The notes under the pieces were generated by a model. That model was given only the letters and a program-made list of their open reading frames with translations, was not told where the DNA came from and ran no database searches. Below, in pieces: positions 11,011 through 62,353 of a stretch of 64,000 nt of DNA; positions within the stretch are counted from its first letter, which is position 1, and every line of letters begins with the position of its first letter. The stretch is taken from the NCBI RefSeq assembly GCF_021246445.1, contig NZ_JAJQXW010000001.1, positions 1 through 64,000 on the forward strand. Direction: 5' to 3'. The position numbers and the translations under genes are program-made. The DNA is from Rhabdothermincola salaria. GTDB lineage: Bacteria; Actinomycetota; Acidimicrobiia; Acidimicrobiales; Acidimicrobilacustridaceae.

Positions 11011-11979
11011 TCAGGTGCCGGGCCGCACGGCGAGCAGGACCACCAGGTACCCGGCGTAGACCGCCAGCAGGGCCGCGCCCCGCCATCGAGCGAGGAACAG
11101 GCGTCGGCCGGGGATGAGCATGACCAGGGCCAGGGCGCCCACGACCAGGCTGAGCAACACCTCGTCGAGGGCCACGTCGAAGGGGCTCAGCAACGCCGCC
11201 ACCGAGACGATCCACAGGCCGTTGAAGATGTTGGAGCCGAGGATGGCCCCGATGCCGATCTCCTGGTGGCCCCGGAGGCCGGCCGCGATGGTGGTGGCCA
11301 GCTCGGGCATCGAGGTGCCGATGGCCACGAAGGTGGCGCCCACCACGAACGCGTCGAGCCCGAGGGCCTCGCCGATCGTCTCGGCGGCGATCACGATGAG
11401 GCGACCGGCCACCACCAACAGGACCAGGCCGCCGAGCATCTCGGCGAGGATCCGATGTCGGTTGCGCTCACCGAGCACTGCGTCAACGGTCTCGTCGAGC
11501 GCGTCGTCGGTCTCGTCGAGCGAATCTCTCCGGGCCCGGTGGGCGCTCCGGGCGGTGACGCCGAGCCAGGTGAAGAAGGTGGCGAGCAGCAGCCCGCCGT
11601 CGAGGCGGGACATCGAGCCGTCGAGGGCCAACACGACGGTGAGCGCAGGCACGGCGAGGGCCACCGGGAGGTCGCGCCGGACGGCGTCACGCTCCACCCG
11701 AGCCGGTCTCACCAACAGCGCCAGGCCCAGGACGAGCGCGATGTTGACCACGTTGGAGCCGAGCGCGTCGCCGAAGCCGATCTCGGGGGCACCGTCGGTG
11801 GCTGCGTTCACGGTCACGAACAGCTCGGGGCTGGAGGTGGCGAAGGCGGCCACGGTGACGGCGATGATGCTGGCCGGGACCCGGGCCCAGGCGGCCAGCC
11901 CAACCGCGCCCCGGACGAAGAGCTCGCCGCCGATCGCCGCGGCCAGCACGCCGGCGACGAGGACGAACGTGGTGCCCAT
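11011..11979 (-). CDS. Calcium/sodium antiporter (YrbG/CaCA family)
   Basis: Two alpha repeats: ATSSPEL..GSNVVNI and GTSMPEL..GSNIFN. Confidence 0.9.
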   Translation of the reverse strand: MGTTFVLVAGVLAAAIGGELFVRGAVGLAAWARVPASIIAVTVAAFATSSPELFVTVNAATDGAPEIGFGDALGSNVVNIALVLGLALLVRPARVERDAVRRDLPVALAVPALTVVLALDGSMSRLDGGLLLATFFTWLGVTARSAHRARRDSLDETDDALDETVDAVLGERNRHRILAEMLGGLVLLVVAGRLIVIAAETIGEALGLDAFVVGATFVAIGTSMPELATTIAAGLRGHQEIGIGAILGSNIFNGLWIVSVAALLSPFDVALDEVLLSLVVGALALVMLIPGRRLFLARWRGAALLAVYAGYLVVLLAVRPGT

Positions 11980-12070
11980 GACGCGAGCCGAGGGTAGTGC
12001 GCTGGCGTGGGGTCCGGCCGGGTCTGGTGGTCGCCCGCCCGAGCCGAATCTCAGTGGTGGGTCTGCGACG

Positions 12071-13825
12071 TCAGGCTGTCGCCAGCACGGTGCGGTCGCG
12101 CCCGCTCTCCTTGGCGTCGTAGAGGGCGGCGTCGGCCCGGGCCAGCACCGCGCCGTACCCCTCGCCCGGCCGGCGTACGGCCACGCCGGCACTGGTCGTC
12201 ACCGAGAGCCCGGGTTCGTCGAAGGTGAGCGCGGCCACGCTCTGGCGGATCCGCTCGGCGATGGTCTTCGGGGTGTCGTCGCCGGCCACGTGGAACACGG
12301 CGAACTCCTCACCCCCGAGGCGAGCCGCCAGGTCGCCGGGGCGGATCTGGTCCCCGATGGCCTTCGCCACCGCCGTGAGCACGGTGTCGCCGACGGCGTG
12401 GCCGTGAGTGTCGTTCACCGCCTTGAAGTGGTCGATGTCGAACATGGTCACCACCAGACCGGGGATGTCGCCCCGATCGTGGAGGGCGAGCAGCCTCGAC
12501 AGCGAGTCCTTGAGGGCCAGGCGGTTGAGCAGGCCCGTCAGCGGGTCGCGCATGGCGAGCCCGTAGAAGCGCTCGCGTTCGAGCTCGACGGAGCGCAGCA
12601 GCATCTCGCGCTCGAGGGCCACCTCCAGGGGGGTGCTGATCTGGGCCAGGGTGGCCAGGGTCGACTCGTGCAGGGCGACCGGGCGCGAGAGGTGCATGAT
12701 CGTGACGCCGGTGGGGGCGTTGCTGATCGGCGAGAAGAGGGCAAGGGCGAGGGCCGGCTCGGTGGACGTTCCGGCGGAGACCCAGGAAGGGCCGGCGCCG
12801 TTGTCGTCGTCGGCGCGGTGGGCGTGGAGCAGCGGGGCCCACTGCTCGGGCAGGGTGCCGGGCACGCCTCCGAAGCGGTCGGCGGCACTGAAGCGCAACA
12901 TGGTGTCGTCGTCGCGAGCCCAGAACTCGATCGACGTGATGGGGAACACGGCGCGGGCCGAGTTCTCGAGTGCCGCCGCGATCTCGCGGAAGTCGCGCAG
13001 CACGGCGAGCTGTTGCAGAGTGCCCCTCAACAGCTGGTGCATGGCAGAGAGCCGGCGGATGTCCGAGTCCTGCCTCGTCATCAGGTAGAGCCCGCAGTCG
13101 AGGTTCTTGAGGGCGGTGATGATCGGCGCGATCAGCGCGTGGGGGATGAGGCGGCCGTGCTGGGGGGCGATGAGGGTGAGGGGGAGCTCTTCGATCTCCT
13201 CGAGGCCGTGGACCAGGATCTCCCGGCTCGGCATGTAGTGCTCGTGGAAGGGGCGGATGTCCTCGAAGTGCTCGATGCTGTCGGCGATCAGCCGTTCGTC
13301 CTGGGTGAAGCCCCCGAAGAGATCGCTCGACAACAACGTGCCCGTCGCTTCGTCGAAGGTGACGAAGGCGCCAGGGAAGTGCAGGTACGGAGTGAACAGG
13401 AAGCGCAGCTCCCGGCCCCCGAGGTCGAGGCGCCAGTCGTTGCGGTCGACGAGGTGGAAGGGCAACCGCAGCGCGTAGTGCTTCATGAGGGCTTCGGCCC
13501 GCCAGTGGGTGACGATCGCTGCGTCGGGCCGCCTCACGAGCTCGTCGAGACGGGTCAGCGATGCGGTGATGTCAGGGTCCTGGTGGTGGCAGACGATCCA
13601 CCGCAGCTGCTCGGGTTCGATGACCTCGGTCACCTTTTTCCACACCGTGTCGAAGGTGAGCAGTCCGCCGGGATCGAACAGGACCGACTGGTCGTCGTGC
13701 TCCAGGAGGTAGACGTGGCACTGGAAGGGGTCGTCTCCGAGGTGCTCACCGACCCACCAGAGCCGATCGGCGATCTCCACGGGGCGGGTGAGGTCGAGAT
13801 CTTCGTTCGAGGTGAGGGGGGTCAT
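12071..13825 (-). CDS. MBL-fold di-iron sensor (ODP/FprA-like) + GAF-like + GGDEF diguanylate cyclase
   Basis: N-terminal HHQDPD, HFPG, SSDLFG; C-terminal DIDHFKAVNDTHGH, RLGGEEF, ADAALY; leaderless, -10 TATCCT. Confidence 0.85.
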   Translation of the reverse strand: MTPLTSNEDLDLTRPVEIADRLWWVGEHLGDDPFQCHVYLLEHDDQSVLFDPGGLLTFDTVWKKVTEVIEPEQLRWIVCHHQDPDITASLTRLDELVRRPDAAIVTHWRAEALMKHYALRLPFHLVDRNDWRLDLGGRELRFLFTPYLHFPGAFVTFDEATGTLLSSDLFGGFTQDERLIADSIEHFEDIRPFHEHYMPSREILVHGLEEIEELPLTLIAPQHGRLIPHALIAPIITALKNLDCGLYLMTRQDSDIRRLSAMHQLLRGTLQQLAVLRDFREIAAALENSARAVFPITSIEFWARDDDTMLRFSAADRFGGVPGTLPEQWAPLLHAHRADDDNGAGPSWVSAGTSTEPALALALFSPISNAPTGVTIMHLSRPVALHESTLATLAQISTPLEVALEREMLLRSVELERERFYGLAMRDPLTGLLNRLALKDSLSRLLALHDRGDIPGLVVTMFDIDHFKAVNDTHGHAVGDTVLTAVAKAIGDQIRPGDLAARLGGEEFAVFHVAGDDTPKTIAERIRQSVAALTFDEPGLSVTTSAGVAVRRPGEGYGAVLARADAALYDAKESGRDRTVLATA

Positions 13826-55434: not shown

Positions 55435-58164
55435 TCAGCGTCGGTGCGACGACAGCTCGATGAGGATGTGATCGAGCTCGGTGGCGGGGACCGGGCGGCT
55501 CCAGAGGTAGCCCTGGGCCCGGTCGCAGCCCATCTCGAGCAGGCGGGCCCGCTGCTCGACGGTCTCGACGCCCTCGGCCACCACGACGAGGCCGAGCGCG
55601 TGGGCCAGTTCGATGGTGCCGCGCACGATGGCTTCGTCGGCCTCGTGGTGGGTGACTCCCGAGATGAACGCCCGGTCGATCTTGAGCTGGCTCACGGGGA
55701 GGCGCCGCAGGTAGCTGAGCGACGAGTAGCCGGTGCCGAAGTCGTCGACGGCAAGCCCCAGCCCGAGGTCGTGGAGCTCGTTGAGGCGCCGAACCGCGGC
55801 GTCGGGGTTCTCCATGACGGCCGACTCGGTGATCTCGAACACGACGTGGGTGGGGTCGATGTCGTGCTCGGCCAAGGCCGCTTCGACGGTGCCGACGAGC
55901 GCGGACTGGCTGAGCTGTCGGGGGGAGAGGTTGATCGAGATCCGGCGGGGAGATCCGTCGTCCTGGCTGAGCCAGGTGCGGAGCTGGCGGAGGGCGGCGT
56001 GCAGCACGACCTCGCCCAGGGGGACGATGAGGCCGGTCTCCTCGGCCAGCTCGATGAAGGCGGCGGGGCCGACCACACCGAGCTGGGGGTGGTTCCAGCG
56101 CACCAGCGCCTCGGCCCACAGCTCGCCCCGGCCCAGGTCGCCGTGCGGGTCAGCGTGGGGGTCGCCCTCGGGGTCCCCGGAGAGGGGGACCTCGGGCTGC
56201 CAGGCGACGGTGAGCTCGTCGCGATCGAGGGCCCGGCGCAGCGCGGTGGTGGTGTCGAGGCGGTGGGCGGCGCGCTCCTGGAGGGCTGGGTTGTACACCT
56301 CGTAGCCGGCTCGACCGCTGTCCTTGGCGCGGTACATGGCGGCGTCGGCCTCGCGCAGGAAGGTGTCGCTCGTCGTGGTGCCGGAGCGGTGGGCCGAGAT
56401 CCCGATGCTGGCGGTCACGAACACCTCGGTGCCGTCGATCTCGAACGGTGGGGCGAGCGCGGTGGAGAGGTTGGAGGCGAGGTCGAAGACGTCGTCGAGG
56501 TCCTCGGCCGATTCGCAGAGCACGGCGAACTCGTCGCCGCCTAGGCGGGCCACCGTGTCGGAGGTCGCGACCGCGTGCTGGAGACGGCGGGCGACGGCCA
56601 CGAGGAGGCGGTCGCCGGCCCCGTGCCCCATGGCGTCGTTGAGCAGCTTGAAGCGGTCGAGGTCGACGAGCAGCACGGCCAGCGTGCGGTCGCGGCGCGC
56701 CGTCCGGGCGGTGGCCCGGTCGATGCGCTCGCGCAGCAGGACTCGGTTGGGGAGGCCGGTGAGGGTGTCGTGCAGCCCCATCTGGGTGAGGCGCCGGTCG
56801 GCCTCGGCCCGCTCGACGGCGGTCGACAGGATCGTCGTCAGGCTCTCGAGGAAGCGCCGCTCGTGGGCGGGGAACCCCCGGTGCTCGACGCTGAGGGCGG
56901 TGAGGGTGCCGAACCGGCGCGTCGGGCTCCCGATGCGGACGATGACCCCCGACCGGTACTCCGAGCCCTCCTCGGGCAGCGCGTCCATGAAGCGAGGGTC
57001 GGTCTCGAAGTCCTCGACCAGGAGGGGGCCGTCGAGGTCGTCGACGAGGCGCTGGAGGTCGAGCTTGCCGCTGGTGACGGGTGCGGTGCCGACCGGGAAC
57101 GGATACGAGCCCCAGGACGCCCGGATGAGGGACTGGTCGTCGCCCACGTGCTCGGCGATGGCGCACGCGTCCAAGCCGAGGGTCTGCCCGGCGCTGTCGG
57201 CGATGGCGGCGGCCACCGCGCCGAGCTCGTGGGTGGCCAGGGCCATCTGTCCGAGGCGGGACACCTCGGACTGCATACGCTCACGGGACTCGAGGTGCTG
57301 GCGGTCGCGCACCTGCGAGGTGATGTCGGTGGCCACCCCGATGACCCCGCCGGCTCCTTGGCCCTCGCGTATCTGGGCGAGGTTGGCCATGATCCAGCGG
57401 CGCCGGCCGTCGGGGAGGTCGAACGCCAGCTCCCCGCTCCAGGGATGGCCGTCCCGAACGGTGCGCATCACGTCGTGGATCGCCTCGCCGGCAGTGGGTC
57501 GAGGGAACACCTCGGGCACCGGCTGCCCCACCACCTCTTCGAGCGACCACCCTCCGAAGCGCAGGGCGGCCCGGTTCATGTAGGTGATGCGGCCTTCGTC
57601 GTCGGCCGCGACCACGGCATCGCCCACCGAGGCCAGCAGGTGGGCCTGGAAGGCGGCGTCGTCGGTGGCGGCCTTGCGTCTGGTGATGTCGTGGAAGTTG
57701 GCCACGAGGCCGCGCACCAGCGGGTCGTCGAGCTGGTTGCTGAGGTGCATCTCGCACCACCGCCAGCCCCCGAGACGGTGAGCCAGCCGCATGGTGTAGA
57801 GGGTGGTGGCGCCGGGGCGGCTCAGTCCGCTCGCCTCGGCCTGCTCGATGGCCACCTGCAGGTCGTCCGGGTGGACGTCGAGGTGGAGCGAACCGAGGTA
57901 GCGCTCGGCGGGGTGGCCGGTGAGGTCCTCGATGGACTCGCTGATCCAACGCACCGAGTAGTCGGTCTCGAGGATGGCCACGACGTCGCGGCTGTGGCGC
58001 AGGAGGGCGGACGCCTCGGCGTGGGCCCGCCGAGCGGCTTGGCGAGCGTCGGCCTCGGCGTCGCGGGCGACGAACGAGCGGATCTGGGCGGGGTCGCCGG
58101 AGCTCGTCGACGGATCGGCCTTCCGGCCGGGTGAGGTGCCCCCGGGTCCGCTCGGCTCGGTCAT
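55435..58164 (-). CDS. PAS-PAS-GAF-GGDEF-EAL c-di-GMP signalling protein
   Basis: VHPDD PAS, HDTLTGLPNR, RLGGDEF, EALVRW, EITES, DDFGTGYSSL. Confidence 0.93.
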   Translation of the reverse strand: MTEPSGPGGTSPGRKADPSTSSGDPAQIRSFVARDAEADARQAARRAHAEASALLRHSRDVVAILETDYSVRWISESIEDLTGHPAERYLGSLHLDVHPDDLQVAIEQAEASGLSRPGATTLYTMRLAHRLGGWRWCEMHLSNQLDDPLVRGLVANFHDITRRKAATDDAAFQAHLLASVGDAVVAADDEGRITYMNRAALRFGGWSLEEVVGQPVPEVFPRPTAGEAIHDVMRTVRDGHPWSGELAFDLPDGRRRWIMANLAQIREGQGAGGVIGVATDITSQVRDRQHLESRERMQSEVSRLGQMALATHELGAVAAAIADSAGQTLGLDACAIAEHVGDDQSLIRASWGSYPFPVGTAPVTSGKLDLQRLVDDLDGPLLVEDFETDPRFMDALPEEGSEYRSGVIVRIGSPTRRFGTLTALSVEHRGFPAHERRFLESLTTILSTAVERAEADRRLTQMGLHDTLTGLPNRVLLRERIDRATARTARRDRTLAVLLVDLDRFKLLNDAMGHGAGDRLLVAVARRLQHAVATSDTVARLGGDEFAVLCESAEDLDDVFDLASNLSTALAPPFEIDGTEVFVTASIGISAHRSGTTTSDTFLREADAAMYRAKDSGRAGYEVYNPALQERAAHRLDTTTALRRALDRDELTVAWQPEVPLSGDPEGDPHADPHGDLGRGELWAEALVRWNHPQLGVVGPAAFIELAEETGLIVPLGEVVLHAALRQLRTWLSQDDGSPRRISINLSPRQLSQSALVGTVEAALAEHDIDPTHVVFEITESAVMENPDAAVRRLNELHDLGLGLAVDDFGTGYSSLSYLRRLPVSQLKIDRAFISGVTHHEADEAIVRGTIELAHALGLVVVAEGVETVEQRARLLEMGCDRAQGYLWSRPVPATELDHILIELSSHRR

Positions 58165-58320
58165 GACGGTGCTCCAGCTCTACGGCCCGCGGCCGCCGGC
58201 CGACCGCGGAGCTGTCATCGGAGGCTACTGCCTGGGCCGGTCGCCAACTCCGGTCCCGGAGGCGGGGGCGGTTCGTGCGGCGCGGAACACCGGGGTGGTG
58301 GCCGTCAGGGCTTCGCTCGC

Positions 58321-58890
58321 TCAGGGCGAAGTCGTGCGGGCCACCCGATCCAGCAGGGCCCGGTGGGTGGTGAGTGCAGCCACGTCGAGGTCGTCGACCT
58401 TGCCCCGGTCGTCCCAGCGCCGCAGGGCGACAGCGTCGGCGGCGCACGGGAGAGCACGGAACGTGGCGGCCTCTCGTCGGGTCATGGGTCCGCCCTGGAG
58501 AGCGAGGCTGTGGCGCGACCCCTCCGAGAGCGAGGCGTGGTAGCCGGGCTCGACGCCGGCGAGGTAGCGCTTGGCCTCGACGTGGGCGGCGACCGGCGCG
58601 GTGACCGAAACCGGGAAGAGGTCGCCCAGCCACGCCGCCCCAGTGCGCTCGTGGTGGTCGTCGAGACCCGGCCGGAAGCCGTCGCCCTGCGCGACCACGA
58701 GGAGGTGTCCGATGTCGTGGACGAGGGCGGCGACGACAAGGGCGTCCGCAGCATGGTCGCGGCGGGCGAGGGCCGCGCACTGCAGGGCGTGGTCGAGCTG
58801 GCTGACCGCCTCGTCGTAGGGGTCGGCGCCGTGGGTCTCGAGCAGCGCGACCACGTCGTCGACAGATGTGGCCCGAGCCCCGACGATCAC
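58321..58890 (-). CDS. phnZ: HD-domain di-iron oxygenase, PhnZ/TmpB-like
   Basis: EAVSQLDHALQCA, HDIGH, HHE, HVEAKRYL, LS..S..SL.LQGGPM, LRRWDD.GK; GTGA overlap. Confidence 0.8.
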   Translation of the reverse strand: MIVGARATSVDDVVALLETHGADPYDEAVSQLDHALQCAALARRDHAADALVVAALVHDIGHLLVVAQGDGFRPGLDDHHERTGAAWLGDLFPVSVTAPVAAHVEAKRYLAGVEPGYHASLSEGSRHSLALQGGPMTRREAATFRALPCAADAVALRRWDDRGKVDDLDVAALTTHRALLDRVARTTSP

Positions 58891-59669
58891 GACAGGACCG
58901 TGCCCTGGAAGTCGCCGATCAGCGAGATCGGCACCCGACCGTCGGCTGCGCCGGCGGCGAACTCGGCCTGCTTCTGGCGGTAGTACGCCTGGCGCAGATC
59001 GCCCTCGGCTGCCGCGTTGTAGGTGGGGTACAGGGCCCGTCGCGGACGGTCCGAACGGTTCGCCCCCGAACGGTGGGGGGTGCGGGAGTGGAACCAGAGG
59101 ACCTGGCCGGCCCGGACCGCCACGGGCTGCCAGTCGAGGGTCGCCACGACGTCGGGCCGGACGCACCCCGTGTCGTCGGTGGGGAGCAGGTCGTGGTGGG
59201 CGCCGGACACCACTTCCAGGCAGCCGTTCTCGACGACCGCATCGTCGACGGCGATCATGCAGGAGACGTGCACGTCCACGAAGCGGTAGGCGGGAGCATC
59301 CTGGTGGGGGGCGAACCCACCACCCCCGGGCGCCTTGTGGTTGACCTTCTCCTTGTACAGCACGGCCGGCTCGCCGAGGAGGGCCGAGGCCAGGTCCAGC
59401 AGCGCACCACTGGTGAGCAGGTCGCGCAGCTCGGTGTGGAACGGCACGAAGTTCTCGGTGCGGCACAGCACGGCGCCCGCCTCGGTGGCCTCGCGGTGGT
59501 GGAGCCAGTCGCCCTCGCCGTCGGGCCAGGCCGACACCTCGTCGACCCAGTCCGAGAGGCGATCGGCGACGTCGGCGGCGAGGGGTTCGGTCAGCACCCA
59601 ACCGGTGCGGGCGAAGTGGGCGACCGCCTCGTCGCCGGGGGCGAGCACCTGAGGACGCACCGTCGCCAT
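58887..59669 (-). CDS. phnY: Fe/2-oxoglutarate dioxygenase, PhyH family, PhnY*-like
   Basis: LYKEKVNHKAPGGGGFAPHQD, ENGCL, HRS..N.S...RR; coupled to a PhnZ-like gene; leaderless, -10 TACCGT. Confidence 0.75.
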   Translation of the reverse strand: MATVRPQVLAPGDEAVAHFARTGWVLTEPLAADVADRLSDWVDEVSAWPDGEGDWLHHREATEAGAVLCRTENFVPFHTELRDLLTSGALLDLASALLGEPAVLYKEKVNHKAPGGGGFAPHQDAPAYRFVDVHVSCMIAVDDAVVENGCLEVVSGAHHDLLPTDDTGCVRPDVVATLDWQPVAVRAGQVLWFHSRTPHRSGANRSDRPRRALYPTYNAAAEGDLRQAYYRQKQAEFAAGAADGRVPISLIGDFQGTVLS

Positions 59670-59690
59670 GGTCGCCAACGGTAGCGGGGA

Positions 59691-59727
59691 CCGTCCGCAG
59701 CGAGCCCGTCCGCAGGGAGCCCGTCCG
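59691..59727. repeat. 15-bp direct repeat (CCGTCCGCAGSGAGC) x2.5 in the divergent promoter
   Basis: Copies at 59691, 59706 and partial at 59721. Confidence 0.7.
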
Positions 59728-59763
59728 GGGCCGCGAACCGATGGCGGGGTAGCGTCCGACGCG

Positions 59764-61200
59764 GTGAACGTCGTGGTGATCACCCTCGATCAGTTCCGTG
59801 GCGACCACCTCGGGGTGGGTGGCCACCCCCTGGCCCGCACGCCCGGCCTCGACGACCTCGCCGCCCACGGGGTTCGCTTCGCCCGTCACCACGCGCAGGC
59901 GGCGCCGTGCGGTCCGGGCCGAGCCAGCCTCTACACCGGCACATACCAGATGAACCACCGGGTCGTGGCCAACGGTTCGCCGCTCGACGATCGGTTCGAC
60001 AACGTGGCCCGCCTCGCTCGGCGGGCCGGCTACGACCCCACGTTGTTCGGCTACACCGACCAGACGGTCGACCCGCGCACCGTCGCCGACCCGACCGATC
60101 CGCGACTCTCCACCTACGAAGGTGTCCTGCCCGGCTTCCGCGTCGGCCTCGACCTCACCGGGTCCCAGGCCCCGTGGCGGGCGTGGCTGGACGCGCAGGG
60201 ACACGCCCCGGGGAACGGGGCGGGGGACGCCCTGCGGTCCGAGCCCGATCGGCCGGCCGAGGTCGGGATCAGCGCCTTCCTCACCGACCGCTTCCTCGAG
60301 TGGTCGGCCGCACGCGACGAGCCGTGGTTCGCCCACCTCAGCTACCTGCGACCTCATCCGCCCTATGCCGCCGCCGGCGAGTGGTCCACGGCGTTCTCCC
60401 CGGAGGAGGTCGATCTCCCGGTGGCACCCGGCTCGCGAGGCGACCTGCTCCCGCTGCACCGGATGATGCTCGACCTGTTCTTCACCGCGGCCCCCACCGA
60501 CGAGGGGGAGCTGCGCCGGATGCGCGCCCAGTACCTCGGGATGGTCGGCGACGTCGACGCCCAGCTGCAGCGGATCTGGGCGGCGCTACGAGAGCGGGGG
60601 CAGTGGGACGACACCGTGGTCGTGGTCACCGCCGACCACGGCGACCAGCTGGGCGACCAGGGCCTGGTCGAGAAGTTCGGCTGGTTCGGCGCCAGCTACC
60701 ACGTGCCCTGTCTGGTGCGCGACCCGTCCCGACCCGAGGCCCACGGCACGGTGGTCGAGCACTTCACCGAGAACGTCGACCTGCTCCCCACCGTGGCCGA
60801 GCTCCTCGGGGTCGAGGTGCCCAGGCAGTGCGACGGATGTGCGCTCACCCCGTTCCTCTCCGGCGCGGTGCCCGACGAGTGGCGCGACGCAGCCCACTGG
60901 GAGTTCGACTGGCGCTTCCTGGCGATGCTGTCGGGGCGCCCGTCGGGATGGCCGGTCGACCGGCGTCTCGAACGGCGCAACCTGGTCGTGCGCCGCACCG
61001 CCGACCGGGCCTACGTCCAGTTCGGCGACGGGGATGCCGTGGCCTACGACCTGGCCGCCGACCCCACGTGGCGGACGTACGCCGCCGACGCCGACGCCGC
61101 GTGGGCCGATGCGAGGGCGCTGTTGGCCTGGCGGGCCGAGCACGCCGAGCGCACCCACACCGGCACCCTGATCGGTCCGCTCGGGTCGGGGTCGGACTGA
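59764..61200 (+). CDS. Sulfatase-superfamily hydrolase, phosphonate monoester hydrolase (PMH)-like
   Basis: DQFR, CGPGRASL.TG.Y.MNHR...N..PLD, GYDP.L.GYT...DPR, RPHPPY, ADHG, HWEFDWR; leaderless GTG with -10 TAGCGT at 59750. Confidence 0.82.
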   Translation: MNVVVITLDQFRGDHLGVGGHPLARTPGLDDLAAHGVRFARHHAQAAPCGPGRASLYTGTYQMNHRVVANGSPLDDRFDNVARLARRAGYDPTLFGYTDQTVDPRTVADPTDPRLSTYEGVLPGFRVGLDLTGSQAPWRAWLDAQGHAPGNGAGDALRSEPDRPAEVGISAFLTDRFLEWSAARDEPWFAHLSYLRPHPPYAAAGEWSTAFSPEEVDLPVAPGSRGDLLPLHRMMLDLFFTAAPTDEGELRRMRAQYLGMVGDVDAQLQRIWAALRERGQWDDTVVVVTADHGDQLGDQGLVEKFGWFGASYHVPCLVRDPSRPEAHGTVVEHFTENVDLLPTVAELLGVEVPRQCDGCALTPFLSGAVPDEWRDAAHWEFDWRFLAMLSGRPSGWPVDRRLERRNLVVRRTADRAYVQFGDGDAVAYDLAADPTWRTYAADADAAWADARALLAWRAEHAERTHTGTLIGPLGSGSD

Positions 61201-61204
61201 GGGG

Positions 61205-62353
61205 TCAGAGCCGCTCGATGATGGTGACGTTGGCCTGTCCGCCGCCTTCGCACATGGTCTGCATGCCGTAGCGGCCACCCGTGCGTTCGAGCTCGGCGAG
61301 CAGGGTGGTCATGAGACGGGCGCCGGTGGCGCCCAGCGGGTGACCGAGCGCGATGGCGCCACCGTTCACGTTGACCTTCTCGAGGTCGGCCCCCGTCTCC
61401 TTGGCCCAGGCCAGCACGACCGAGGCGAAGGCCTCGTTGATCTCGATCAGGTCGATGTCGTCGAGGCTCAGCCCGGTCTTCTCGAGGGCGTGGCGGGTGG
61501 CGGGGATCGGGGCGGTGAGCATCCACACGGGATCGTCGGCGCGCACCGACAGGTGGTGGATGCGGGCCCGAGGCGTGAGCTCGTGGTCGGCGAGGGCCTG
61601 CTCGCTGGCGATGAGCAGCGACGCCGACGCGTCGGAGATCTGGCTGGCGCACGCCGCGGTGAGGCGGCCTCCCTCGACGAGGGTGGGCAGCGAGCGGATC
61701 TTGTCCCAGTTGGGTTCGCGAGGGCCCTCGTCGGCGGTGGTGTCGCCCACCGGGACGATCTGGGCGTCGAAGCGCCCCTCGGCCCGGGCCCGGATGGCCC
61801 TCACGTGGGACTCGACCGCGAACGCTTCCATCTCGTCGCGGGTGCAGTTCCACTTCTCGGCGATGAGCTCGGCGGCGCGGAACTGGCTGACCTCCTGGTC
61901 GCCGTAGCGCTCCTGCCAACCGGGGGACTCGCTGAACGGGGTCTCGTGGCCGTACTGCTCACCGGCGGTCATGGCCGCGGAGATGGGGATCATCGACATG
62001 TTCTGGACGCCACCGGCCACCACCAGGTCCTGGGTCCCGCTCATGACGCCCTGGGCGGCGAAGTGCACGGCCTGCTGGCTGGAGCCGCACTGGCGGTCGA
62101 TGGTGGTGCCGGGCACGTGCTCGGGCCCGCCGGCGACGAGCCACGCGGTGCGGGCGATGTCGCCGGCCTGGGGTCCGATGGTGTCGACGCAGCCGAACAC
62201 GACGTCGTCGACGGCCCCCGGATCGATGCCGGTGCGCTCGAGGAGGGCGGCGATGCTCGCCGCGCCCAGATCGGCGGGGTGCACGGTGGAGAGTCCGCCA
62301 CCACGGCGGCCCACGGGGGTCCGGACGGCATCGACGATGTAGGCCTCGGCCAT
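61205..62353 (-). CDS. fadA6: Acetyl-CoA acetyltransferase FadA6-like
   Basis: GCVD.IG.QAG.IAR, DRQCGSSQQA, VQNMS.IPIS.AM, RYGDQE.SQFR, NEAF, GHPLGATG, CEGGGQ. Confidence 0.85.
   Translation of the reverse strand: MAEAYIVDAVRTPVGRRGGGLSTVHPADLGAASIAALLERTGIDPGAVDDVVFGCVDTIGPQAGDIARTAWLVAGGPEHVPGTTIDRQCGSSQQAVHFAAQGVMSGTQDLVVAGGVQNMSMIPISAAMTAGEQYGHETPFSESPGWQERYGDQEVSQFRAAELIAEKWNCTRDEMEAFAVESHVRAIRARAEGRFDAQIVPVGDTTADEGPREPNWDKIRSLPTLVEGGRLTAACASQISDASASLLIASEQALADHELTPRARIHHLSVRADDPVWMLTAPIPATRHALEKTGLSLDDIDLIEINEAFASVVLAWAKETGADLEKVNVNGGAIALGHPLGATGARLMTTLLAELERTGGRYGMQTMCEGGGQANVTIIERL

Follow-up and report, generated by a model that had tools for sequence, protein, structure and literature searches.

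Three genes at one locus

The window analysed here is a stretch of 64,000 nt with 72% G+C from Rhabdothermincola salaria (contig NZ_JAJQXW010000001.1), whose own genome comprises 3.9 Mb in 7 contigs and is 97.8% complete. Positions 58321-61200 are occupied by three genes (Table 1), encoding a hydrolase of the phosphonate monoester hydrolase (PMH) type, a PhyH-family dioxygenase resembling PhnY* and an HD-domain oxygenase resembling PhnZ. A sequence-only reading of this DNA had described a PMH-like hydrolase gene lying head-to-head, across 94 bp, with a coupled pair of PhyH and HD genes, and had proposed that the three enzymes release phosphate from phosphonate esters. The arrangement was borne out in each of its parts. 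CGPGR, MNHR and GYTDQTVDPR are read in the translated hydrolase, which matches Pfam Sulfatase (1.3e-49); GTG 59764 and ATG 59669 leave exactly 94 bp between the start codons; and the PhyH protein matches Pfam PhyH (1.4e-27, positions 3-213 of 213). The GTG start of the HD gene and the stop codon of the PhyH gene overlap as GTGA, and the two genes are translationally coupled.

Upstream of the conserved core, the only start codons in the hydrolase frame are ATG 59668 and GTG 59764. The former would add 32 residues, which are unconserved and are not found in relatives. Because the relatives begin 0-8 residues before the core N-[IVF]-L/V-x-I-T-L-D, GTG 59764 is favoured. Read from ATG 59669, the PhyH protein has the 7-residue N-terminus that its relatives share. 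The PhyH start codon and the upstream in-frame ATG of the hydrolase overlap on opposite strands within a CCATGG palindrome (59666-59671); if the hydrolase used ATG 59668, the two genes would start within each other.

By its residues and by the ranking of its matches, the hydrolase is assigned to the PMH subgroup. The structures it matches best are PMHs, namely 4UPH (7e-111, 375 bits), 2W8S (3e-88, 300 bits), 2VQR (4e-87, 296 bits) and 4UPK (1e-75, 258 bits), and the alignment is full-length, covering residues 31-505 of 510 and running through the C-terminal region, where PMHs carry the hairpin by which they form tetramers. The dimeric arylsulfatases SpAS2 and SpAS1 reach 169 and 163 bits, and choline sulfatase up to 102 bits. 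The best NCBIfam match is PehA (NF045661) at 378 bits, under the cut-off of 900, so the protein is not a PehA equivalog. The structure 4UPH is that of ArPMH (Table S6, PMC5870055), and the same study tabulates 11 active-site residues, two of which tell the groups apart: Tyr and Thr/Asp in PMHs correspond to Lys and His in arylsulfatases and choline sulfatase (Table S7, PMC5870055). Aligned with the RlPMH and SpPMH sequences, taken from plasmid records, and with 78 relatives, the hydrolase has the PMH state at 11 of 11 positions (D, Q, C, R, N, Y, D, H, D, H and K). Its CxPxR motif reads C-G-P-G-R, with Cys, Pro and Arg kept in all 78 relatives. At the positions of Tyr105 and Thr107/Asp (RlPMH numbering) it reads G-Y-T-D, i.e., Tyr-x-Asp as in ArPMH and SpPMH and again in 78 of 78 relatives, and Asp12, Gln13, Arg61, Asn78, His218, Asp324, His325 and Lys337 are all identical. 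Each of these positions agrees in 77-78 of the 78 relatives, save Gln13, which is replaced by Glu in 21 rows of the linked clade described below. All 11 residues are common to the window hydrolase and the characterised RlPMH (2VQR), BcPMH/PehA (2W8S), ArPMH (4UPH) and SpPMH (4UPK). Clustering with arylsulfatases had been named beforehand as the outcome that would speak against a PMH; the protein falls on the PMH side both by score (258-375 versus 163-169 bits) and by carrying Tyr/Asp instead of Lys/His. It comes from the Acidimicrobiia, whereas the published arylsulfatase/PMH tree holds only alpha- and beta-proteobacterial sequences (PMC5870055). Since neither possible N-terminus shows, by eye, a signal peptide or a twin-arginine motif, the hydrolase is predicted to be cytoplasmic.

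Judged by profile and structure matches, the oxygenase pair is most like the known phosphonate pairs, but below equivalog level. The top family of the HD protein is TIGR03276 (Phn-HD), followed by PhnZ1 of Gimesia maris (NF052439, 158 bits) and TmpB (NF049941, 141 bits), and its structural matches are PhnZ (4MLM, 1.4e-27) and TmpB (6NPA, 2.5e-26). The protein aligns over PhnZ 7-182, with the H..HD..H..H..D set falling on H34, H58, D59, H80, H104 and D161 and with His62 and Glu27 of PhnZ also kept; the motif and the roles of ligands and residues are those described for PhnZ (PMC7916636, PMC8177086). The columns of H34, H58, D59, H62 and H80 are invariant across 48 rows. The residues at PhnZ K108, S126, Q133 and R158 are kept and T129 is replaced by Ser; we take these five to be phosphonate-binding residues. 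The closest annotated plasmid relative, a Variovorax HD gene (49% identical), lies inside a phnCDE/C-P lyase cluster.

In the PhyH protein, H-Q-D and a later H-R-S are visible in the translation, presumably the HxD...H iron triad as assigned by eye. Its best NCBIfam match is the G. maris methylphosphonate hydroxylase (NF052437). Both G. maris families are matched far below their equivalog cut-offs (500 and 300), so methylphosphonate specificity cannot be read from these scores. A PDB search with the protein returned no PhnY* structure, the best match being SnoN (1.7e-12). The protein is 50-78% identical to the products of PhyH genes from 31 fetched loci, which always lie beside a PhnZ-like gene.

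The window pair shares its two-enzyme logic with PhnY*/PhnZ of the marine fosmid HF130, which act on 2-aminoethylphosphonate (AEP; 4MLM/4MLN/4N6W), and also the gene order, a PhyH-family 2-oxoglutarate hydroxylase followed by an HD diiron oxygenase. However, HF130 PhnZ and the window HD protein score only ~100 bits, and the window has no adjacent transporter. GmPhnY*/GmPhnZ1 of G. maris, which convert methylphosphonate to formate and inorganic phosphate (Pi), correspond to the best family of the PhyH protein and the second-best of the HD protein. The HD protein also resembles TmpB of the TmpA/TmpB pair of Leisingera caerulea (trimethyl-AEP; 6NPA), but the window hydroxylase is of the PhyH type, whereas TmpA is BBOX/TauD-like.

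The genes immediately flanking the trio are unrelated to it, and thiolase, ChsH2, P450 and CoA-transferase genes lie beyond them. A Na/Ca-exchanger-type membrane protein (11011-12198) is one of 25 further open reading frames scanned in the window.

Table 1. Features of the window around the three genes, and tight gene junctions at related loci (L numbers)
Feature	Position	Strand	Remarks
PMH-type hydrolase gene	59764..61200	+	likely start GTG 59764, 478 aa; alkaline-phosphatase superfamily, sulfatase family, CxPxR
PhnY*-like Fe(II)/2-oxoglutarate dioxygenase gene (PhyH family)	58887..59669	-	260 aa, start ATG 59669
PhnZ-like HD-domain mixed-valent diiron oxygenase gene	58321..58890	-	189 aa; GTG start
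Divergent control region	59670..59763	.	94 bp, between both start codons
TAGCGT, -10-like TANNNT hexamer	59750..59755	+	8 nt before hydrolase GTG
TACCGT, -10-like TANNNT hexamer	59678..59683	-	8 nt before PhyH ATG
15-nt tandem repeat, unit CCGTCCGCAGCGAGC	59691..59727	.	2.5 copies; TRF score 67; between the hexamers
PAS-GAF-GGDEF-EAL gene	55435-58164	-	flank, unrelated
Thiolase gene	61205-62353	-	flank, unrelated
L026			PMH stop, 23 nt, PhyH; PhyH/HD overlap ATGA
L087			PMH, PhyH, HD co-directional; PhyH/HD overlap ATGA
L089	7337-9342		PMH/HD-like overlap ATGA
L067	7920-9991		PMH/HD-like overlap GTGA
L024	7483-9482		HD-like/PMH overlap GTGA
L090	1484-3655		PMH/HD-like gap 3 nt

The divergent control region

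In mycobacterial transcript-start maps, leaderless mRNAs are recognised by a TANNNT hexamer placed at -12 to -7 of their ATG or GTG. Such hexamers precede both start codons in the window, hence both genes are predicted to give leaderless transcripts, as the sequence-only reading had stated, and the prediction is a well-founded one. The 15 sequencing runs listed with matching sequence are all DNA metagenomes, with at most 0.21 of the sampled words, and no RNA run is among them. Across the 24 divergent loci (window included), an in-frame PhyH start with TANNNT 6-8 nt upstream is found in all 24 and an in-frame hydrolase start with TANNNT 6-9 nt upstream in 21, against a background of 131 out of 32,675 start-like triplets (0.4%) at a spacing of 6-8. 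TACGCT or TACGAT lies 6 nt before the hydrolase ATG in 19 relatives and 9 nt before a GTG in L003. In L007, L008 and L060 the hexamer is present, yet the script found no in-frame hydrolase start at the required spacing. The distance between the two start codons shrinks to 35 nt in 18 loci, where both hexamers fit into this short stretch. A simple scan of 58100-61400 for sigma-70 promoters and terminators returned 0 sites of either kind, which is uninformative for an actinobacterium of 72% G+C.

The tandem pair of the 15-nt repeat between the hexamers is unique in the genome and was not seen in the intergenic regions of relatives; it may be a candidate operator or a product of recent slippage. 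As a regulon motif the repeat was rejected: only the tandem is unique, and the single copies of the unit with up to 2 mismatches, of which there are 83 genome-wide (40 of the 83 viewed), look like background. Direct repeats of GTTCAC(C), of the PHO-box kind, occur upstream of both pstS-like genes of the genome (C5:111950-112215 and C5:116050-116320). Taken strictly, as GTTCAC-N5-GTTCAC with at most 1 mismatch in the second unit, six pairs are present in the genome, one of them ahead of pstS at C5:112021. Since none lies in the 94-bp region, direct Pho control is unsupported here. The other five pairs (C1:394215, C1:1303353, C1:1318552, C2:146461 and C5:107763) could mark further genes of the Pho regulon.

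Conservation and rearrangement of the linkage

With the hydrolase as query, a scan that covered a single genome of each species yielded 426 confirmed relatives. The 80 best loci (52-73% identity) were kept; nearly all are from metagenome-assembled genomes (MAGs) of Acidimicrobiia, and three are from Phenylobacterium. Linkage was scored by tblastn, and neighbours were grouped by six-frame clustering of open reading frames. PhyH and HD genes adjoin the hydrolase in 26 of these best 80 loci, in three gene orders: 23 are divergent as in the window, L026 and L027 are co-directional, and in L067 an HD-like gene comes after the PMH gene while the PhyH gene is convergent. On two further contigs, both short, the sequence breaks off within PhyH; in L024 an HD-like gene immediately precedes the hydrolase gene; and neither gene lies beside the hydrolase in the remaining 51, 7 of which have too little flank. 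In a separate sample of 401 Actinomycetota genomes, hydrolase relatives (E<=1e-70) were found in 13, all of them Acidimicrobiia, and none in the ~370 other Actinomycetota genomes of that sample.

A PMH tree was built by a quick IQ-TREE search from 3 plasmid PMHs, the window hydrolase and those of 77 of the 80 loci, 81 rows in all; L043, L048, L078 and L084 were left out, their aligned segments being shorter than 400 aa. The window falls into a 25-row clade with 99% support, made up of 23 linked rows and the 2 contigs ending inside PhyH. L026/L027, L067 and L024 lie in other clades amid unlinked rows, and the linked state requires at least four changes on the PMH tree. In the PhyH tree, most linked genes form one weakly supported group of 33 rows (support 86), with 2 unlinked rows. 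A lack of conservation of the adjacency had also been named as an outcome against the sequence-only reading; the adjacency is conserved within one clade and recurs elsewhere in other orders, including operon-like and translationally coupled ones. Two wide flank contexts are seen among the divergent loci: about 21 share a long synteny (MFS, DSBA, F420H2 reductase and DapB_N-like genes on the HD side; adh_short, alpha/beta hydrolase and AKR genes on the PMH side), while the window and L003 alone have thiolases, and the trio is the sole block common to both. That the genes stay close although their order and orientation differ speaks for selection. Beside the trio, the census of neighbour families found no transporter, pst/pho gene or regulator consistently present.

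The tightest junctions are listed in Table 1. PMH and PhnZ-like genes overlap by 4 nt in L089, L024 and L067, and such overlaps in several lineages are the strongest single argument for one common pathway. The HD-like proteins of these modules keep the checked diiron ligands and the loop Glu, and Ser replaces the loop Tyr in three aligned rows; the L024 protein is gapped at this column in the alignment, where its translation reads G-S-D-E. No PhyH match was obtained in the fetched stretches of L024 and L090.

Several PMH clades are without PhnY*/PhnZ. A GDSL lipase/acylhydrolase gene adjoins the PMH gene, mostly divergently, in L009-L013, L018-L020, L023 and L090, and an alpha/beta hydrolase gene lies just upstream of it in L004-L006, L052, L070, L077 and L082; these neighbours hint at a lipid- or ester-derived substrate. 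In a clade of 16 loci, the PMH gene is followed by a PAS-GGDEF-EAL gene, beside hopanoid genes. The Phenylobacterium (Alphaproteobacteria) PMHs of L041, L046 and L081, ~61% identical to that of the window, branch inside the Acidimicrobiia group, which suggests a transfer between phyla. Six loci (L014, L026, L033, L034, L077 and L080) are labelled 'Bifidobacterium', yet their PMH and PhyH sequences cluster tightly with those of Acidimicrobiia MAGs, and the labels look wrong.

A proposed route from phosphonate ester to phosphate and its alternatives

The reading favoured here, to which we give about an even chance, is a cytoplasmic route from ester to phosphonate, to 1-hydroxyphosphonate and to Pi. 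The PMH-type hydrolase would first cleave the P-O-C ester bond of R-P(O)(O-)-OR' and free the phosphonate, using a divalent metal and, as nucleophile, either formylglycine made from the Cys or the Cys as such. The PhnY*-like Fe(II)/2-oxoglutarate dioxygenase would then hydroxylate the phosphonate at C1, and the PhnZ-like diiron oxygenase would oxidatively cleave the C-P bond to give Pi and a carboxylic acid. Expression would start from two back-to-back promoters with leaderless mRNAs, translational coupling linking PhyH and HD. Behind the route stand three protein families with their catalytic residues and a linkage that recurs in several gene orders; we infer the order of the steps, a phosphonate ester rather than a phosphodiester as substrate, and the leaderless transcription. 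Neither C-P lyase (PhnJ) nor phosphonatase was found in the genome, hence PhnY*/PhnZ would be the only recognised C-P route for the freed phosphonate.

Plausible substrates are sugar- or glycerol-linked phosphonates left by the breakdown of phosphonoglycans or phosphonolipids. They are suggested by the place of proteobacterial PMHs in sugar or glycerol uptake clusters and by the GDSL and alpha/beta hydrolase neighbours of other Acidimicrobiia PMHs. In addition, only O-P cleavage on the alcohol side can release the phosphonate; ordinary glycerophosphodiesterases could not do so, since the bond on the side they would attack is C-P. In three plasmid loci (L083, L085 and L086, on pRL9, pAU20c and NLR16a p3), proteobacterial PMH genes, that of the characterised RlPMH among them, are embedded in clusters of sugar ABC-transporter, galE or glpD genes or overlap with them, a placement that fits a sugar- or glycerol-linked phosphorus ester as native substrate.

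Several observations weigh against this route. Because of their shared wide synteny, the ~21 divergent loci count as roughly one observation, so the divergent arrangement amounts to about two contexts, not 23, and the PhyH tree could also reflect one old linkage that was later rearranged and in places lost. The co-occurrence of PMH with phnY*/phnZ, which had been proposed as a check, held up in part, as a conserved clade with recurrent gene orders. In an even sample of 401 Acidimicrobiia genomes, an HD match (E<=1e-10) was found in 126 (G212 and G275 included), a hydrolase match (E<=1e-60) in 110 and both in 83. The HD gene is present in 83 of the 110 PMH-positive genomes and in 43 of the 291 PMH-negative ones, which speaks for the route, with a raw odds ratio of 17.7 that is inflated by relatedness. 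However, PMH and HD genes lie within 2.3 kb of each other in only 9 of the 83 genomes with both, so adjacency is the minority state. Five of the nine are divergent, namely the window's own genome (G000) and four others from its family; G264 and G255 are co-directional, and in G278 and G156 an HD-like gene comes after PMH. Among the others, the genes are ~10 kb apart in 2 genomes, on separate contigs in 56 and at distances of 65 kb to 1.2 Mb in 16. A hand count in family f2 gave 12 genomes with both, 4 with HD only, 13 with PMH only and 9 with neither, a weak association. Of the characterised PMHs, RlPMH lies between sugar and peptide ABC-transporter operons and SpPMH beside regulators; two further plasmid PMHs lie beside ABC ATPase/glpD and beside galE/sugar ABC genes. 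No phosphonate genes were found near these four, whereas the window hydrolase lies beside PhnY*/PhnZ. Among the matches listed, no accession is common to the plasmid records with PMH relatives (46, of which 40 are listed) and those with PhnZ relatives (20).

Further points against the route come from the rest of the genome. As the sequence-only reading had noted for the window, no formylglycine-generating enzyme (FGE; PF03781) was found, and this extends to the whole 97.8%-complete genome and to five further linked genomes (G019, G039, G059, G301 and G264), one of which is a single contig of 99% completeness. An anaerobic sulfatase-maturating enzyme (anSME) was not found above cut-off in the window's genome either (best 35 versus 349 bits), which has four sulfatase-family genes. 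In E. coli, the formylglycine of recombinant PMHs is made by a host enzyme not yet identified (PMC5870055), hence a missing FGE does not show that the hydrolase is inactive. Either a formylglycine-forming system of another kind exists here, as in E. coli, or the unmodified Cys is used. The remark that no transporter is in the window also stands: none lies within 10 kb on either side of the trio (the list of open reading frames for 1-45 kb is not exhaustive), and no PhnD was found above cut-off in the genome. The induction by phosphorus limitation that had been suggested found no support, the pstS-type pair being missing from the control region. Finally, the family name leaves the substrate unfixed, since PMHs also hydrolyse phosphodiesters in vitro, not phosphonate monoesters alone (PMC5649143). 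Of the three-step route, the PMH-type hydrolase and the recurrent adjacency have thus held, while the minority state of the adjacency and the characterised PMHs standing apart from phosphonate genes count against it.

The unlinked pairs were viewed as well. At each of 13 such loci that were fetched, the PhyH-HD pair has only unrelated genes around it (RecD/PD-(D/E)XK, UvrC, SbcCD, subtilase and others) and no transporter beside it; L094 has the HD gene and no PhyH match. In two genomes of one genus (L098 in G179 and L099 in G313), the PMH gene lies ~10 kb from the PhyH-HD pair on the same contig, with glycoside hydrolase family 3, enoyl-CoA hydratase and beta-lactamase-family genes in between, which may be a loosened module.

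One alternative is that the locus joins two separate phosphorus-scavenging functions under one control region, with the hydrolase acting on ordinary phosphodiesters, PhnY*/PhnZ on imported free phosphonates, and both being switched together. PMHs hydrolyse phosphodiesters well in vitro (PMC5649143), PMH and HD genes are kept apart in most genomes with both, and phosphonate catabolism is usually Pho-controlled, to judge from a heading of PMC10574752. Against this, the 94-bp region has no strict GTTCAC pair of the pstS type, of which the genome contains only six; in the loci with annotated neighbours, PMH has no pst, pho or phosphatase gene next to it; and the 4-nt overlaps of PMH and PhnZ-like genes suggest a fixed stoichiometry in one pathway. 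We consider this alternative unlikely. It is decidedly unlikely that the neighbourhood is without functional meaning, the hydrolase acting on an unrelated substrate (such as a sulfate ester or the phosphodiester of a sugar or lipid) and the order being inherited synteny. The >=10 kb of synteny shared by ~21 of the 23 divergent loci would fit, as would the GDSL lipase, alpha/beta hydrolase or hopanoid genes beside other PMH clades and the sugar-transporter genes around characterised PMHs. However, the trio is kept in two unrelated flanks, co-directional, convergent and overlapping forms occur in other families, and the PMH-type Tyr/Asp residues argue against a sulfatase.

The oxygenase pair might also act on something other than a phosphonate, being kin of PhnZ-like proteins thought to use other hydroxylated amines, with the hydrolase preparing that substrate. 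This would agree with the scores, as the HD protein reaches 204.9 bits with Phn-HD, a near miss of the 214.6 cut-off although this is still its top family, and the PhyH protein 268 bits against 500. It would also agree with the loop of the HD protein, which reads YxE, one residue shorter than the YxxE of PhnZ and TmpB, in which Tyr caps Fe2 and Glu binds the substrate amine (PMC8177086); in the Acidimicrobiia rows of the YxE type, Tyr25 is kept in 44 of 44 and Glu27 in 43 of 44. Both the near miss and the short loop count against the phosphonate route. Nevertheless, phosphonate oxygenases make up the top three named families of the HD protein, phnCDE and C-P lyase genes surround its closest annotated plasmid relative, the presumed phosphonate-binding residues are kept but for the Ser, and a PMH-type partner suits a phosphorus ester, so we hold this alternative to be very unlikely. 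Lastly, the order of the steps could be reversed, PhnY*/PhnZ oxidising the esterified phosphonate and the hydrolase then cleaving the resulting phosphate monoester. The sequence is compatible with this and all three proteins are predicted to be cytoplasmic, but PMHs are poor phosphate monoesterases. Moreover, the iron of PhnZ binds the phosphonate oxygens and the C1 hydroxyl directly (PMC7916636), which an ester would hinder, and the chance of a reversed order seems remote.

The idea that an esterase of the alkaline-phosphatase superfamily frees phosphonate for a C-P-cleaving pathway has precedents. PEH/PMH enzymes were postulated to free esterified phosphonates of marine dissolved organic matter for C-P lyase (Sosa et al. 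2017, PMC5649143), and pmh is annotated beside phnWX or phnWYA (PMC13608971). The cases described there involve C-P lyase or hydrolytic pathways in proteobacteria, on the basis of annotation and co-presence, and a Sulfitobacter protein there is only 31-34% similar to characterised PMHs, whereas the window has an oxidative pair. In the literature searched, whose reach left most subscription journals outside, no paper names both PMH and PhnZ, and the single paper naming PhnZ, sulfatase and phosphonate together is unrelated to the linkage.

The starting point for a wider proposal is the favoured ester-to-phosphate route and three matters of background. Catalytic promiscuity has a textbook model in the PMHs, and we know of no physiological substrate for the characterised ones. 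Natural phosphonates occur mostly esterified, in lipids, glycans and dissolved organic matter. The word 'monoester' is nevertheless absent from the 2023 review of phosphonate degradation (PMC10574752), and the step that frees the phosphonate therefore appears as a gap. In its section 4, this review gives four oxidative variants, none with an esterase, to which the window trio adds a PMH gene. We suggest tentatively, at somewhat less than an even chance, that PMH-family enzymes are the missing phosphonate esterase, dedicated, cytoplasmic and feeding PhnZ-family oxygenases in two versions of one module. In the first, as in the window, PMH, PhnY* and PhnZ would act together, after monoesters linked to an alcohol (sugar, glycerol or other) are cleaved. 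In the second, the PMH gene is translationally coupled to that of a Tyr-less PhnZ-like oxygenase, and the fetched DNA of some such loci gave no PhyH match; this version might act directly on esters of phosphonates that are 1-hydroxylated by nature. If so, the 'promiscuous' PMHs would gain a native role and the oxidative pathway a fifth, ester-directed variant. The conserved, rearranged and partly overlapping PMH-PhnZ linkage thus bears both on the release of phosphonates and on the native substrate of PMHs. The loci are mostly from MAGs of freshwater, peat and soil Acidimicrobiia, so the route would matter for the phosphorus cycle outside the ocean, and for a turnover of methylphosphonate there that releases no methane.

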